The notes under the pieces were generated by a model that was not told where the DNA came from, searched no databases, and worked only from the letters and a program-made list of their open reading frames with translations. DNA of 64,000 bases from the NCBI GenBank assembly GCA_964507275.1, contig CAZDPG010000001.1, forward strand, positions 20,958-84,957, read 5' to 3'. Within the stretch, counting starts at the first letter, position 1. Each line of letters starts with the position of its first letter. This DNA is from an uncultured Candidatus Saccharibacteria bacterium (GTDB lineage Bacteria; Patescibacteriota; Minisyncoccia; Phycocordibacterales; Phycocordibacteraceae). Made by a program: the position numbers and the translations under genes. This document shows, in pieces, positions 8,998-45,224 of this stretch.

Positions 8998-10050
8998 ATG
9001 TTGCATATGAAAAACATCTTAGTCACAGGTGGCTGCGGTTTTATCGGATCAAATTTCGTGCATTACCTGTACGATAAATATCCAGATTATCGCATCTTTG
9101 TTCTCGACATCCTTACATACGCTGGTAACCCTGAAAACCTTGCGGATATAGAAGCAAGAGAGATTAACCTCCCAGAAGGGAGGGGGCGATATGTATTCGT
9201 CAAGGGAGACGTGAGCGATGAAGATATGCTGCATGATCTTTTTGAGAAAAACAAATTTGAGTTCGTGTACCATTTCGCCGCAGAAAGTCATGTAGATCGT
9301 TCTTTTTTTAACTTTTCAAATTTCGTCCAGACGAACATAGAAGGAGCTCTATTGCTCGCCATGATGGTTCAGCGTTATGGGGGGACAATGGTGCAGATTT
9401 CCACAGATGAAGTTTATGGGTCTATTCCTGAGGAACAGGGGTTTGTCACGGAGGATGCTCCTTTTTACCCGGCTAATCCATATGCCAGCTCCAAAGCCGC
9501 GGCAGACATGTTGCTCCAGAGTTACATGAAGACGTCAAAAATCTCATTGCGCATCGTGCGAGCGACGAATAATTATGGTCCATACCAATATCCGGAAAAG
9601 CTCATCCCCCTCGGTATCACTAATTTGCTAGAAGGAAAGAAGATACCATTGCACGGCTCAGGAGAACACTTGCGACAGTGGTTACATGTTCGCGATTTTT
9701 GCGCGGCGATAGATCTAGTGTCCCTTCAGGGCGAAGAGAATGGCATTTACAATGTTGCTGGTGAGCACGAATCAAATATAGACGTGTTGCGTCTCATTGC
9801 TCAGCATCTCAATAAAGATCTAGAAGAAAACCTGGATCACGTATCGGATCGTCCAAATCCTGATATGCGATACGCAATCGATTCCTCGAAACTTGAAGCG
9901 CTCGGATGGAAACGCGAGCGTTCGTTTAGAGAAGAATTGCCTAAGGTTATTGAGTGGTATAGAGAGAATGAGGAGTGGTGGAAGAAGCTCAAGAGAAAGA
10001 AGGAATACATAATGCATTATGAGCTTCAGTCAAAAGCAAAGTTTTACTAA
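8998..10050 (+). CDS. rfbB: dTDP-glucose 4,6-dehydratase
   Basis: 'ILVTGGCGFIGSNFV' plus 'YASSKAAADMLLQSY' YxxxK catalytic motif; overall RmlB-like sequence. Confidence 0.85.
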   Translation: MLHMKNILVTGGCGFIGSNFVHYLYDKYPDYRIFVLDILTYAGNPENLADIEAREINLPEGRGRYVFVKGDVSDEDMLHDLFEKNKFEFVYHFAAESHVDRSFFNFSNFVQTNIEGALLLAMMVQRYGGTMVQISTDEVYGSIPEEQGFVTEDAPFYPANPYASSKAAADMLLQSYMKTSKISLRIVRATNNYGPYQYPEKLIPLGITNLLEGKKIPLHGSGEHLRQWLHVRDFCAAIDLVSLQGEENGIYNVAGEHESNIDVLRLIAQHLNKDLEENLDHVSDRPNPDMRYAIDSSKLEALGWKRERSFREELPKVIEWYRENEEWWKKLKRKKEYIMHYELQSKAKFY

Positions 10051-18795: not shown

Positions 18796-18804
18796 AAAGT
18801 TATC

Positions 18805-18895
18805 CACACATGAAAATTTTTTCGCACACAAAATATTTTTTACGCGCAATAATATCTTGTAGAAACGTTTGTGCATGAAAATTTTTTCAAGCGCG
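18805..18895 (+). promoter_or_regulatory. repeated 'atgaaaattttttc' A/T-rich motif (three related copies) upstream of small basic-protein ORF
   Basis: 'catgaaaattttttcgcacac' and 'gcatgaaaattttttcaagcg' about 60 nt apart, plus a related copy inside the upstream palindrome. Confidence 0.35.
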
Positions 18896-18938: not shown

Positions 18939-19034
18939 ATGGCCGCAAAGAAAAGAAAGGCAGTGAAGAAGACTGCAAAGAAGGCAGTCAAGAAAGTCGC
19001 GAAGAAGCGCAAAGCCGCTAAGAAGCGTTCCTAG
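18939..19034 (+). CDS. small lysine-rich basic protein (31 aa, histone H1-like / KAAKK-repeat)
   Basis: ATG..TAG ORF 'MAAKKRKAVKKTAKKAVKKVAKKRKAAKKRS', below the ORF-track size cutoff; own upstream motif and downstream hairpin. Confidence 0.45.
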   Translation: MAAKKRKAVKKTAKKAVKKVAKKRKAAKKRS

Positions 19035-24871: not shown

Positions 24872-24883
24872 TCTCCCTTGCTG

Positions 24884-24934
24884 AGGAAATAACCCACAGA
24901 GCACCCGCTCTGTGGGTTATTTCCTCTTTATTTT
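24884..24934 (+). terminator. rho-independent terminator after gatB
   Basis: 'gaggaaataacccacagagc acccgc tctgtgggttatttcctc' then 'tttatttt'. Confidence 0.65.
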
Positions 24935-24990
24935 ACAGGGTTGTGTATAAGCTCTTCTCTACAAGCCGAGATATGGCTATAATGCAATAC

Positions 24991-25785
24991 ATGGATGAGA
25001 TTCTTATAGAAGAGAAGAAGTATGTATCGTCGAAGCAAGCCGCAAAAATGACCGGGTATGCTAAGGATTATATCGGCCAGCTCTGTCGAGAAGGACGTGT
25101 CCCGGCGCGGCTCGTTGGGCGTAGTTGGTATGTCCTCGAGTCGGCAATTCAGGATCACCGCTTCGGGAATCAAGAAGCAGAAATGCATTCTGTGCAGCCA
25201 TCCTCAGCCACTTCTTTGACTCAGACGTGGGAGTCGACGCGATATGAGTCGTCTAATACAGAGACACTCCCGTCTCTAAACCTCCTACAAAAGGCAGAAA
25301 TGGCCTCTGAAGCTGAAAAAGAAGAAGAACACGATGCTGTGCAGCTCTCACAGCTCCATGACTCGTGGAGGGCGTGGTTTGATCATGTTGAGGATGCTTC
25401 TGCGCCAATCGAGGAATCCGTTCAGGCCCCTGTTTTAACCGCTGCAATAGGAGAGAAAGAAGAAAAGAGCGTTGAAAGAACGGGAGAAGAAGTAACCGTA
25501 CCGCTTCATATTGTCGCCGAGAAGCGCTCTCTTAGAGAAGTTCTACCAATAGAGAAGGTAAAGGTAGTGGAGAAGAAGGAAGAGGTTATAGTGCAGGTAA
25601 ATCACGAAGATCGTGAAGAGATCCGTAGAGGAGTCAGTATTTCGAGTCTTGTACATGCTTTCGTTGTGCTTATTGCCGTGATTTCTGGATCGCTTGCAGC
25701 AGCAGGAAGTGGGTATTTCGATTCCTTTTTCATATCGAATAGCCAAGCAGCAGTTATATCAGGAATCTCAGTGGTAAATAAATAG
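24991..25785 (+). CDS. hypothetical protein with N-terminal HTH-like domain (paralogous to giant-protein N-terminus), Glu/Lys-rich middle and C-terminal TM helix
   Basis: 'SSKQAAKMTGYAKDYIGQLCREGRVPARLVGRSWYVLESAI' aligns with 'DASELSGYTSDYLARLVRSGEIQGKRIGHSWVISSASL' of the 26397 ORF; TATAAT 8 nt upstream of ATG. Confidence 0.4.
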   Translation: MDEILIEEKKYVSSKQAAKMTGYAKDYIGQLCREGRVPARLVGRSWYVLESAIQDHRFGNQEAEMHSVQPSSATSLTQTWESTRYESSNTETLPSLNLLQKAEMASEAEKEEEHDAVQLSQLHDSWRAWFDHVEDASAPIEESVQAPVLTAAIGEKEEKSVERTGEEVTVPLHIVAEKRSLREVLPIEKVKVVEKKEEVIVQVNHEDREEIRRGVSISSLVHAFVVLIAVISGSLAAAGSGYFDSFFISNSQAAVISGISVVNK

Positions 25786-26396
25786 CGTATATATTCGATT
25801 TCTTGTCTCGGATATCCGAGCTAATGATATAGAGATAAAAACTGATTACAGAGAACACTATCGCAAGATAAGGTATACATTTATATAGCTTGGTTGCTAC
25901 AAGGGTCCTCATAAGAGTCCCTCGCATAGATCGATACTCATCCATGAGCATGGGAAGAATAGATTTACCTGTGATAAATAAGATTTATCACATATATGAG
26001 CATCAGACGGCTATACATACTTATATATAGGTATGTATAGCTAGGCATCTGGTATACGGAATAAGTATATGTATCCTATGTAGTTCGTATATCCGGAGCG
26101 ATATACATGCGTGCTTCTGCATATATAGTAAAGTTCGTTTTTGCACGATATTTTTTGCATCGAATGGATGAAGATCATGATTTTAACACCGATGATCTTT
26201 CTTAATGCGGTTTTAACGGCAAATCCCACATAATTTTCTGCTGTCAGAGGTGATACATTCGGCGAAATTTTTTGCATTTCGTTGTAAATGAAAAATGAGA
26301 TTAGTTGTGCGTCGTGATGTGTGATAATTATCCACACCATTTTCGTAGGGAGTGCCGAAATAGTAAGTTATTATTTAGTTAATTCGGCTATCCGAC
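25786..26396 (+). promoter_or_regulatory. AT-rich 0.6-kb leader with multiple perfect palindromes upstream of the giant gene
   Basis: Palindromes at 25807-25820 (ctcggatatccgag), 25971-25991 (gtgataaat aag atttatcac), 26010-26041 (gctatacatac ttatatata gtatgtatagc), 26171-26199 (aagatcat...atgatctt); visibly lower GC than flanks. Confidence 0.45.
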
Positions 26397-29300
26397 ATGA
26401 ATCACTCCCTCAAAGAAAATTTAATAACGACGAAGGATGCGAGTGAGCTTTCAGGATACACTTCAGACTATCTTGCGCGTCTTGTTCGATCGGGAGAAAT
26501 ACAGGGAAAGAGAATTGGACATAGTTGGGTCATCAGCAGTGCGTCGCTCGAGACCTTCATGACCAAACAGAAAGGTCGTAAGCTCGATCGAGCGCGTGAG
26601 CTCGCGAGCTCACGCGTGCGCGAATACAATAGGCACAATCAGTTCGTGCAGCGTACGACGCGTGCGTTGACAGAAAAGATTTCAGTACCGAAATTCAGAC
26701 TTGAGGAGATTTCGATTCGCTCACATTCGCTCGCGCTTGGAGTGGCGCTCGTAGTTGTTGCACTAGGTGCTGTTGGCGCAAATGCCGCAGCTCTGCCGCA
26801 AGTCGCGCAACGAGCATCAGCACTCGCCACAGAAATTTCTTCAGGCTTCGTCGACACGTTCGGTGATGTTCCGACACGCATCGCTGTGCGCATGGAAGAG
26901 GCACGCATCGCTGTGCGAGCAGATGCGACACGAAATGCACTTGCGTCTCGTCGCGCAGGATATGTTGCGTCACCAGTTCTCGCATCGATTGATCTCGAAA
27001 CTTTGCGAACAGTACTTGTGAAAGAATATCGCGCACCGCGCGCGACATCTGACATTGCATTCTCGTCGTCGCGCACTGACGCACCGATCCTGACTGTCAC
27101 CGATGTGTACGCATCAGTTGCCGGTGCGTATGAATTCTTCGCGAATCCCTCAAACATCGGCACGACTCTTACCGATGCGTACTTTGCGATCGGTACTGAT
27201 GCGTACGCAGCAGTCGATGCATCATTCTCCGCCTACCGTACTCTCATTGATGCCTCAGGGACACCGATGCTCGCAGCCGCTGCGACGACGCGCGATGCAC
27301 TCGCGCACATGCCGCGTCTTGTCGCTCAAGTGAACTTAGCACTCGGCGAGGCAGTTATAAAAGCGACACATGCGGCAATACGCACTGACGTGATTGCCGC
27401 GCATGGTCTTGCTGCCGCTGCTCCGGAGAGCGCCCGTATCGCCGTCACACTGATGGGTTCTACAGGCGATACTCTCGCTCGCGCCGCAGAGCAAGTGCCT
27501 GCACGCGTCGCCACCGCGTATTTGAACGCGACGGCGGTACCGGCAGTACTCGCTCCTCGACTCGCGCAGGCCGTGTTCAACGCGGAATACTCCATAGCTG
27601 ACCGCTTCGTTTCTGTTACGAACGTCGCAAGCGAGCGCTACTTAGCGCTTGTCGAAGGGACGGGAGATATCGCGTATGAGAGCTCCACGAACGCCCGTTC
27701 GATAGTCCAGTCAGCTTCGCGCACGATTGCTTTCGCTCCTGCTGCTCTTGAGGACGTTACGCTCGGAACGCTTGGCAAGAGTGCCGCAGCCCTCGATTCG
27801 GTGACGCATCTCTCATCATTCGCAGCCGTGCTGCCGGCGCTCTCTGCGAGCGAGAAGACGGCACTCGCGGTCTATGAGGCGATACACTCAGCCTTCGACT
27901 CTGCGAATAGGACGCTCGTCGCATTCTTCACTACTACGCCGGAGACGGTGCTCCCGACCGGCGTGCCGAAGGCGCGCGTCATTGCTGTCGCAACATCGAC
28001 CCGTGCGGTCTCTTCCGGGACGCAGCCGGTAACCACTCTTTCGTATCCGACGTACACGACCGTGGTACGCGGCGTATCGGAAGACTTCGTGAATCAGTCG
28101 CTCGCATCGCTTCGCACGAATGTACTTGCGACGGTCGCGGGCATGATACAGCCGGTCAGCAGCCAGGTCGTCCAGAACATCACGACAATCCAGCAGTTGA
28201 ACCGGATCGACAGTCTGCATGACCTCGTAGTGCAGAATGGCGACTTCCGCAACAGCATATTCGACAATGGCATTAGAGTGAACGCGCGCGATGGCTATTT
28301 CGATAACCTTACTGCTGGTACGACGACGCTCGCTACCACCACGGTCAATGGCACTCTTACGATAAGCTCGCTCACGCTCACAGGCTCCCTCTCGAGTCCG
28401 GGCTCTATCACTGGTAGCTACTTCGTCTCGACGAGCACGAATGCTACCTCGACGTTCGCAGGATCGATCAACATCGATAACGCTGGCTTCGTCTATGCGA
28501 CATCGACACGCAACGTCGGTATCGGCGTGCTCTCTCCCGCTGCGCTCATCGCCGTGCAGAACAGCACGTCGACGCAGCCGATATTCGTGGCAAGCAATGC
28601 CGCCGGAGCGGAAGTATATCGCCTTACGAATGACGGATTCGTCGGTATCGGCACGACATCGCCTACCTACAATCTCGCTGTCGAGGGCTCATCGACGCTT
28701 GGTAATCAAGCGATTGCTGGATACTTCACTGCGACTACGACAACAGCTACCTCGACATTCGCTGGCTCGTTCACCGTCGGTACGGACAAACTGGTCGTCA
28801 ATTCGACGACCGGGAACATCGGTATCGGGACGACGAGTCCGTATCAGAGGCTCTCGGTGGCGGGGAATGTCATCGCGGACACGTTTATCGCCACCTCGAC
28901 CACAGCCACCTCGACATTCGCCGGTGGGTTCGCTGTAGAGACGGACGGTCTAGTCTATGACTACTCGTCAAATAATGTTGGTATCGGGACGGCGTCGCCC
29001 GCGAACGCAAAGTTAGATATTCGTGAAAGTGCTTCTGGGGCGTACGGCATAAAGTTGACGAACAGGAACGCCACTCGGACATGGGGGATTGCTACTGATG
29101 TTGGTGCCGTTAACGACAACAAATTCGGGATATTTGATGTCACGAGCGGAGGAGCTCGGCTGACTATTGATACGAGTGGTTATGTTGGTATCGGCTCGAC
29201 GAGCCCGGCACAGAAACTTGTCGTGAGCGGAAATATCCTTACGGACAACGCTAATAACAATCTTAGTGCGTATAACATAATCAATCGCCCTACGAACGCG

Positions 29301-45185: not shown

Positions 45186-45224
45186 TACTCCCTCAGAACA
45201 AAAAGTCAATGCAGGTGTGGATAA

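Follow-up and report, generated by a model that had tools for sequence, protein, structure and literature searches.

A two-gene module of Kaiserbacteria-type Paceibacteria with related helix-turn-helix domains on a predicted tail-anchored protein and a predicted giant surface fibre

We analysed a 64,000-nucleotide stretch of DNA, hereinafter the window, from an uncultured Candidatus Saccharibacteria bacterium (lineage Bacteria; Patescibacteriota; Minisyncoccia; Phycocordibacterales; Phycocordibacteraceae; assembly GCA_964507275.1, contig CAZDPG010000001.1, positions 20,958 to 84,957 of the forward strand). Two adjacent genes of the window, here called open reading frame 1 (ORF1) and the giant gene, specify proteins that begin with homologous winged helix-turn-helix (wHTH) domains. 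ORF1 is a predicted tail-anchored protein, while the giant gene, the largest gene of the window, specifies what the sequence indicates is a tail-fibre-like surface protein. The pair is a conserved two-gene module of Kaiserbacteria-type Paceibacteria. Our tentative reading, to which we give somewhat less than an even chance, is that the fibre gene is autoregulated by membrane-held domains that bind DNA on the cytoplasmic side, a control that may be coupled to export.

Two adjacent genes share an N-terminal domain

The initial annotation of the window proposed that residues 15–60 of ORF1 and residues 12–55 of the giant protein are related and that their pattern is HTH_17/excisionase-like. Both proposals hold, and the residue ranges are correct to within a few residues. 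BLASTP aligns ORF1 residues 12–54 with giant residues 10–52 without gaps (12/43 identical, 29/43 positive, E = 4e-10). In a phmmer comparison of all six-frame ORFs of the window, the reciprocal ORF1/giant pair gives the sole matches (E ~1e-7). The Smith-Waterman score of the two N-termini is 95, compared with 23.8 ± 4.4 for shuffled sequences (z = 16; 0/5000 shuffles score as high), indicating that composition does not drive the match. Profile-profile comparison (hhalign) of the ORF1 family (50 sequences) with the giant family (40 sequences) gives a probability of 96.9% and an E-value of 1.8e-10 over 46 columns.

The AlphaFold model of giant residues 1–140 contains the expected fold, namely a strand, a helix, a recognition helix, a two-stranded wing and a helix. 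Specifically, strand 9–11 is followed by helices 12–19 and 23–32, strands 37–40 and 43–47, a 47-residue helix (48–94), and a lower-confidence helix over the hydrophobic segment. Residues 11–80 are modelled with confidence (predicted local distance difference test, pLDDT, >90). Foldseek and PDB sequence-profile comparison concur on the helix-turn-helix (HTH) fold, and the close structural matches of the domain are DNA binders in every case; RacA is among the Foldseek matches, with a TM-score of 0.61 on the target. The Arg and Lys residues of helix 2 and the wing are invariant, and invariant positions comprise R28, R31, G41, and W44 of the giant protein and R33, R36, R40, and R44 of ORF1. Neither a missing HTH fold nor similarity at the level of compositional noise, the outcome named beforehand as fatal to the proposal, was observed.

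Although the fold is clear, assignment of the sequences to the HTH_17/excisionase-MerR class is borderline. Relative to the Pfam HTH_17 (PF12728) gathering score of 27 bits, ORF1 is just above at 27.7 bits, as is the N-terminal fragment of the giant protein at 28.1 bits, and the full-length giant protein is below at 25.3 bits; precomputed PF12728 hits are on record for most homologues. Both proteins are below the 28.8-bit cut-off of NCBIfam TIGR01764 'excise' (ORF1 15.8, giant 24.9). The combination typical of the MerR family (wHTH, long dimerisation helix, effector-binding C-terminus and a Pfam MerR or MerR_1 match) was not found. There is no match to Trans_reg_C, the domain being of the HTH_17/MerR type rather than the ToxR type, and no Pfam match at E up to 1 to HTH_25 or the RodZ C-terminal domain.

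Architecture of the two proteins

The wHTH of ORF1 is followed by an acidic, mostly disordered linker of ~150 residues, the single hydrophobic segment of the protein, and a conserved outside tail of ~20 residues. The linker contains short conserved motifs (TWESPRYE, LPSVNRL, DSWxAWFD and VPIH, the third of them a confident helix) and, in the AlphaFold model, a confident amphipathic helix at residues 112–137. A GTG at 24943 is an alternative start. ORF1 has 1425 homologues; all 120 of those listed are covered over their full length (240–295 residues), and the named ones among them come only from the Patescibacteria group (Paceibacterota, Kaiserbacteria, Minisyncoccia). The first ~60 residues are nearly invariant, surface positions included, while the remainder of the proteins is ~45% identical. 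Because identity to the consensus over the HTH is 92% for amino acids and 56% for third codon positions, the constraint acts on the protein.

The giant protein likewise has a single hydrophobic segment (residues ~105–137), which is joined to the basic helix by a variable linker. Its n-h-c layout is that of a cleavable signal peptide, and an A-x-A is conserved in it: residue 128 is Ala in 36/37 sequences, residue 129 is Q, R, H or N, and residue 130 is A, S or T in 33/35. Past the export signal, an Ala-rich helical region precedes 38 'NVGIG' repeats with a period of ~90 residues, and a Peptidase_S74 domain follows this repetitive fibre region, as in tail fibres. The source record of one homologue gives it the name 'tail fiber domain-containing protein'.

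That both proteins are membrane-tethered with the shared domain in the cytoplasm, as the initial annotation suggested, is plausible; each of the two hydrophobic segments has basic residues ahead of it. In the giant protein the tether may be cut off as a leader instead of staying as a permanent anchor, and its HTH and helix are best described, from the sequence comparisons, as a ~105-residue extension ahead of an export signal. This description takes into account the layout of the segment and its homology to the ordinary signal peptides of two HTH-less orthologues described below.

The module is conserved across the clade

A scan of one genome per species yielded 172 stretches encoding ORF1 relatives. 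At 68 loci, including the window, ORF1 is followed by a spacer (median 620 bp, range 286–866) and a large ORF with a homologous HTH-helix-hydrophobic N-terminus; most of these large ORFs run off the contig owing to their repeats. At the other 15 loci, six contigs end early, seven genes are divergent paralogues of the module, and two are orthologues of the giant gene without the HTH. The conserved gene order is murB-secA-obg-gatB-ORF1-spacer-giant.

When the giant N-terminal profile was searched exhaustively with HMMER against 1.84 billion representatives, 139 clusters matched at E ≤ 1e-30 and 1693 did so at E ≤ 1e-10. The match begins at residue 1–10 or behind a further HTH copy in all of the top 150. 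The matched proteins are up to 7214, 5467, 4883, and 4235 residues long, and their source names are just 'tail fiber domain-containing', 'helix-turn-helix domain-containing' or 'hypothetical'. Some giant proteins have two matched stretches and one (P0160) has three, mostly tandem HTH copies before the hydrophobic segment (multi-copy examples are L016, L022, L027, L035, and L037, and P0132, P0134, and P0160). Direct sequence search with the giant N-terminus returned 1 and then 11 short partial proteins, and the loci were found via synteny and the exhaustive HMMER search. Literature searches for such an architecture in the candidate phyla radiation (CPR) found no paper. The survey of large surface proteins called for at the outset places the domain in a clade-wide module with conserved promoters, neither of which had been part of the initial annotation.

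Further classes of HTH-linker-hydrophobic paralogues were also seen (L014, L018, L026, L049, L069, L047, L074, and L037:19567). Examples are proteins of 238–250 residues encoded right behind ORF1, and another large protein encoded ~7.5 kb downstream.

Promoter and spacer DNA is unusually conserved

A strong terminator behind gatB (24883–24926) cuts off the upstream operon, so that ORF1 has its own promoter. Its upstream region contains a palindrome, AGCCG-agata-tGGCT (24964–24978), and a −10-like TATAAT (24978–24983) located 7 nt before the ATG. Because this hexamer is so near the ATG, the ORF1 mRNA is probably leaderless. Across 59 loci compared without gaps, GCCGAGATA is present in 45/59 and TATA[CA]T in 56/59, 6–8 nt from the ATG; the conserved order is TTGTGCACA...CTCTTCC...AGCCGAGATAcGGCTATACT, 7 nt, ATG.

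Upstream of the giant gene, positions −32 to −1 (AAGTTATTATTTAGTTAATTCGGCTATCCGAC) are mostly at least 90% identical in the 68 loci, far above adjacent synonymous sites, and weaker conservation reaches GCCGAAATAG at −43. The inverted arms of a dyad, GCCGAA/TTCGGC, flank the −10-like TATTAT and are centred on it. Farther upstream, 66/68 loci have a TTATCCACA box, either at −69(±1) or at −78/−79(±1). The two positions are one helical turn apart, which indicates phasing on one face of the helix. The ORF1 and giant promoters have the motifs GCCGA[GA]ATA and CGGCTAT[AC]C in common. In a metagenome-wide scan for the start-proximal element of the giant gene, 33/33 sites lie directly upstream of an HTH-giant gene. 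The TTATCCACA box is also found upstream of the extra paralogue genes, whose promoters have the same layout (TTATCCACA ... TATA-like ... TAATT[CG]G ... ATG) with a start-proximal sequence specific to each class.

A third conserved element lies past the ORF1 stop codon. In this element, 81% of cells are able to pair as a 5-bp hairpin, and the window has copies of its palindrome TCGGATATCCGA at 25808, 26085, and 26384. Taken together, the candidate operator stretches are 24941–24990, 25786–25822, and 26328–26396, with motifs that include TAATTCGGCTATCCGAC, GCCGAAATA, and TTATCCACA.

No covariation beyond that of shuffled alignments was found for the GCCGAA/TTCGGC and TCGG/CCGA stems upstream of the giant gene or for the TCTCG/CGAGA hairpin past ORF1. 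Conservation at the level of sequence without base-pair covariation is the pattern expected for protein-binding sites.

Several other explanations of the conserved DNA were tried and rejected. RNA structure is not supported, with no covariation, no structure predicted by RNAalifold and an empty Rfam search. A long-range interaction in which the 5' element pairs with the S-G-Y codons is contradicted by the Gly codon, which varies freely. A conserved small ORF in the spacer was also dismissed, the matches being only frame-independent translations of short conserved DNA blocks. As for an invertible segment for phase variation, the ends of the window spacer are 75% inverted repeats, and all-against-all BLAST of the 68 spacers found no inverted blocks save a quasi-palindrome of ~30 nt. 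The spacer does not qualify as oriC, as it has a single perfect DnaA-type box and the window has no GC-skew turn.

Loss of the giant HTH is accompanied by decay of the start-proximal element in two lineages

Two loci provide a natural experiment. The giant orthologues of L064 (ATG at 9287) and L075 (ATG at ~11132) lack the HTH and the basic helix and start with ordinary signal peptides that are homologous to the hydrophobic segment of the giant protein: ...IVSGASAVQA followed by AGLPQ in L064, and MDSLFEKH...APAAHA followed by AE in L075. The −10 region and the TTATCC[AC]CA box are retained at both loci, as is ORF1 upstream, its HTH still invariant. At the start-proximal element, in contrast, both are degenerate, with matches at ~12/17 positions in L064 (by eye, with one inserted base allowed) and at 6/17 ungapped or ~9 with gaps in L075, compared with a median of 16/17 elsewhere. 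Since the element decays despite retention of ORF1, its constraint in these two cases tracks the giant HTH and not ORF1. Since ORF1 is invariant where the giant HTH is lost, the two proteins are not an obligate pair.

Features of the locus

Table 1. Coordinates in the window of the features of the two-gene module and of the interrupted giant gene
Feature	Position	Strand	Description
ORF1 upstream region	24941..24990	+	TTGTGyAyA box (window: TTGTGTATA), CTCTTC, palindrome, −10-like hexamer
ORF1	24991..25785	+	predicted tail-anchored protein of 264 aa: wHTH, linker, transmembrane (TM) helix, outside tail
ORF1 wHTH (residues 11–55)	25021..25155	+	Pfam HTH_17, 27.7 bits; almost invariant in the clade
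ORF1 C-terminal TM helix (residues ~213–243)	25627..25719	+	hydropathy >1.6; AlphaFold helix 217–248, pLDDT >90
Element past ORF1 stop	25786..25822	.	CGTATATAC...TTTCTCGTCTCGGATAgaCGAGAT, conserved (68 loci); window copy holds 12-nt palindrome TCGGATATCCGA
AT-rich 611-bp spacer	25786..26396	.	no conserved ORF; no Rfam match
TTATCCACA box	26328..26336	+	identical to classical DnaA-box consensus; 69 nt upstream of giant ATG
Promoter/operator-like element GCCGAAATAGTAAGTTATTATTTAGTTAATTCGGCTATCCGAC	26354..26396	+	ends at giant ATG; −10-like TATTAT at 26369–26374
Giant gene, 4407 codons	26397..39620	+	wHTH, basic helix, export signal, fibre repeats, S74, intein N-half
Giant wHTH (residues 9–58)	26421..26570	+	paralogous to ORF1 HTH
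Basic helix after giant HTH (residues ~56–94)	26562..26678	+	Q.xRKxDxARxLAxxRxxEYRxH; alignment; AlphaFold helix 48–94
Giant hydrophobic export signal (residues ~105–130)	26709..26786	+	R-S-H, 11–14-residue core, S-G-A, A128-x-A130
Peptidase_S74/intramolecular chaperone, tail-fibre type (residues 4200–4256)	38994..39164	+	Pfam PF13884, E = 3.4e-15
Intein N-fragment ending giant ORF	39330..39617	+	starts CVTGDTRL; Pfam Intein_splicing, N part
Intein C-fragment and C-extein	42118..43662	+	intein ends ...GIFAHN at 42333; C-extein 42334–43662; Pfam; two Bact_surface_Ig-like domains

The giant gene is a 'fractured gene', which breaks inside an intein N-fragment and resumes at the intein C-fragment (~42118–42333), where GIFAHN is followed by T. 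The C-extein (42334–43662) is, by sequence comparison, the true C-terminus of the giant protein: the L085 orthologue is uninterrupted, has no intein and shares this C-terminal sequence. Between the intein halves are three ORFs, encoding an NYN domain protein (39745–40278), a protein with a zinc ribbon and a weak PD-(D/E)XK nuclease (40291–41634), and a 156-residue protein (41637–42107). The arrangement matches a fractured-gene split-intein arrangement described previously (PMC2677866). A split intein in an exported protein raises the question of the site of trans-splicing.

The spacers contain further repeated sequences. A palindrome, TTCGCACAAT-N9-ATTGTGCGAA, or the half-palindromic TTCGCAAAATATT...ATTGTGCGA, is found in ~30/68 spacers, ~410–550 nt before the giant ATG (e.g. 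L025, L034, L041, L056, and L080), and in some clades it is followed by ~100 nt of conserved sequence. It looks like a candidate second operator. The window has no clear copy of it and has, in its place, CGATATTTTTTGCAT at position 26146 and CGAAATTTTTTGCAT at position 26263. A near-perfect 32-nt palindrome, GCTATACATACTTATATATAGGTATGTATAGC, occupies the middle of the window spacer (26010–26041), with related TATAC-rich copies at 25871–25893 and 26061–26076. In seven metagenome loci (L085, L094, L095, L099, L105, L107, and L112), a ~22-nt partial duplication (...CCGACATCTATCAACACGTTATACGAC ATG) lies behind the start-proximal element; the original ATG is mutated and the start is shifted downstream.

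The TTATCCACA box occurs at few intergenic sites of the window, namely 18800–18808 (+), 26328–26336 (+), and 45216–45224 (−), and at 134 sites in the loci. It lies upstream of a tiny Lys-rich gene before secA (in most loci), upstream of the giant gene and other genes of the HTH module, and 87 nt before the gene of a 1358-residue surface protein (45303). The degenerate form TTATCC[AC]CA is found 150 times in 1.23 Mb of loci, compared with ~19 expected. The 31-codon ORF at 18939–19034 (+), between a TTATCCACA box and a terminator-like hairpin upstream of secA, encodes an extremely basic peptide, MAAKKRKAVKKTAKKAVKKVAKKRKAAKKRS, which may be histone-H1-like or ribosome-associated; its position is conserved in related loci. 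The window has a monotonic positive GC skew, and nearly all of its genes are on one strand. The only complete chromosome among the loci is that of L079 (OY969413.1, 993,452 bp), whose locus (967,460–988,206) is ~25 kb or less from the end of the record.

Discussion

The initial annotation left open whether the shared domain marks a regulator pair or a sorting domain. Three features of the sequence and predicted structure favour DNA binding, namely the fold, the conserved elements in non-coding DNA, and the invariant Arg and Lys residues of the wing and of helix 2; the HTH-less orthologues show that the two proteins do not form an obligate pair. In the reading that we tentatively favour, the HTH domains of ORF1 and of the giant protein would remain on the cytoplasmic side of the membrane, where they would bind DNA. 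The giant HTH, as the first stretch to be translated, would recognise the nearly invariant element that spans the −10 region, transcript start and start codon of its gene, and binding there would repress, by feedback, a gene that is very costly to express. A second membrane-tethered regulator of the same locus would be ORF1, whose HTH is invariant and whose promoter has an element of its own, GCCGAGATA...CGGCTATAC. Because the giant HTH is carried on an export leader, the feedback could report the amount of fibre exported.

Several points weigh against this reading. The near-total invariance of the ORF1 HTH exceeds that of a typical operator-specific regulator, a sign that there may be further or other partners. 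The Pfam matches are borderline, and the NCBIfam 'excise' scores are below threshold. AlphaFold models the HTH region of ORF1 poorly (pLDDT 50–76), probably because the alignment is invariant, so the fold assignment of ORF1 rests on homology. The natural experiment comprises two lineages only, and the start-proximal element could act in a short 5' untranslated region instead. The TTATCCACA box may be a plain DnaA site unrelated to ORF1 and the giant gene. Finally, a membrane-bound domain reaches only DNA near the membrane, and HTH folds sometimes serve protein contacts, as RodZ illustrates.

The last point leads to an alternative that we consider unlikely, though it deserves to be weighed: the HTH is an adaptor that binds a conserved cytoplasmic partner and aids or places fibre export and assembly, with ORF1 as a free-standing membrane receptor version. 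Candidate partners are SecA, the signal recognition particle, the ribosome, a cytoskeletal or division protein, and RNA polymerase. The near-invariance of all 60 residues of the ORF1 HTH, including those of the surface, fits contacts through multiple surfaces and is better explained in this way than by a regulator. The short linear motifs and the amphipathic helix of the ORF1 linker, the placement of the module on an export leader and the conserved synteny with secA are also consistent with an adaptor. A precedent is RodZ, a lineage-conserved protein that has an HTH facing the cytoplasm, a linker and a single TM helix and that binds MreB (PMC2637339). The likeness is architectural only, as the HTH of RodZ is of the XRE type and the TM helix of ORF1 is at the extreme C-terminus. 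The close structural matches of the domain are all DNA binders, however, and an adaptor leaves the nearly invariant non-coding elements, and their decay upon loss of the giant HTH, unexplained. The HTH-less orthologues further indicate that the domain is dispensable for the fibre.

Less probable still is a specific form of export coupling, in which signal peptidase I cuts after A-x-A and leaves a 130-residue HTH-helix-membrane remnant that intramembrane proteolysis may free. One regulator molecule would arise per exported fibre, and by binding to the invariant operator at the start codon of its gene, the leader would adjust transcription to export. ORF1 would then be a free-standing copy of such a leader that has been domesticated. 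Control of this kind, by a 'signal-peptide-borne transcription factor', would be a new form of coupling between secretion and gene expression. The n-h-c layout with the near-invariant A128, polar −2 and small −1 residues supports cleavage, as does homology to the bona fide short signal peptides of L064 and L075, and the architecture of the remnant would parallel that of ORF1. However, the conserved small residues, spaced i, i+4, would suit the packing of helices in a trimeric anchor just as well, it is hard to see what would attach a cleaved fibre to the cell, and no protease was identified.

We regard as slightly more improbable again that the domains are a non-regulatory DNA tether, which holds the locus or the nucleoid at the membrane, either through transertion of the 13-kb gene or as a RacA-like chromosome anchor. 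The resemblance of the fold to RacA, the very long gene with an exported product and the abutment of the conserved element on the start codon are in line with a tether. A position over the −10 and start site is typical of a repressor, however; the elements are confined to the HTH genes' own promoters; and the fibre gene is still present in the HTH-less lineages. A chance or compositional likeness of two unrelated proteins, which might be suspected from an identity of just 28% over 43 residues, has next to no probability and is refuted by the shuffles, the hhalign comparison, the common Pfam family and the pairing kept in 68 loci.

Among known systems, the closest in fold are the excisionase/MerR wHTH proteins (Xis of phage Pukovnik and of Tn916, RdfS, BldC, and TraN of pIP501), which are small soluble proteins or the N-termini of soluble regulators. 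TraN has tandem HTH copies, as do some of the giant proteins. Unlike in excisionases, the domain here is on a protein with a membrane helix (ORF1) or ahead of the export signal of a protein of 2,000–7,000 residues, and no recombinase or mobile element is adjacent to the pair. The extended signal peptides of giant exported proteins, namely the extended signal peptide region (ESPR) of autotransporters and two-partner secretion (TPS) proteins and those of the YSIRK type, are ~25 residues long, unstructured and without a DNA-binding fold. They are similar in being an N-terminal extension before the signal-peptide core, whereas the extension here is a folded wHTH with a 40-residue basic helix.

Bitopic factors such as ToxR, CadC, and VtrA have a cytoplasmic winged helix, one TM helix, an outside domain and an adjacent partner gene (PMC9214523, PMC5693285). 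If the predicted DNA binding is right, the present module would work in a similar way, with a partner next door. It lies outside the ToxR family, which has an OmpR/PhoB-type domain, a partner (ToxS, VtrC) without an HTH and a small sensor as outside domain, whereas here the HTH is of the excisionase/MerR type, the outside part of the giant protein is a giant fibre and ORF1 is almost without an outside domain. In one polypeptide, MYRF and MrfA bring together an S74 domain of the phage tail-spike intramolecular-chaperone type, a membrane segment and a DNA-binding domain (PMC3828593). Because the S74 domain of MYRF is placed between the DNA-binding domain and the TM segment, self-cleavage frees the DNA-binding domain, the fold of which is unrelated to the giant HTH. 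The S74 domain of the giant protein is not between the HTH and the membrane segment; as it is ~4,100 residues past that segment and outside, its cleavage cannot free the HTH.

Annotations reading 'helix-turn-helix domain-containing protein' in Kaiserbacteria-type genomes thus conceal a membrane-associated system. The CPR, or Patescibacteria, are thought to be attached to hosts and have very few recognisable regulators. The module ties a probable attachment fibre to promoter DNA of unusual conservation and to two domains predicted to bind DNA at the membrane, and thereby provides a concrete, testable circuit. If the leader domain does feed back on its own promoter, this would be a new coupling of secretion to transcription. 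In either case, the invariant 60-residue domain and the 32-nt DNA element are a clean marker for Kaiserbacteria-type genomes.

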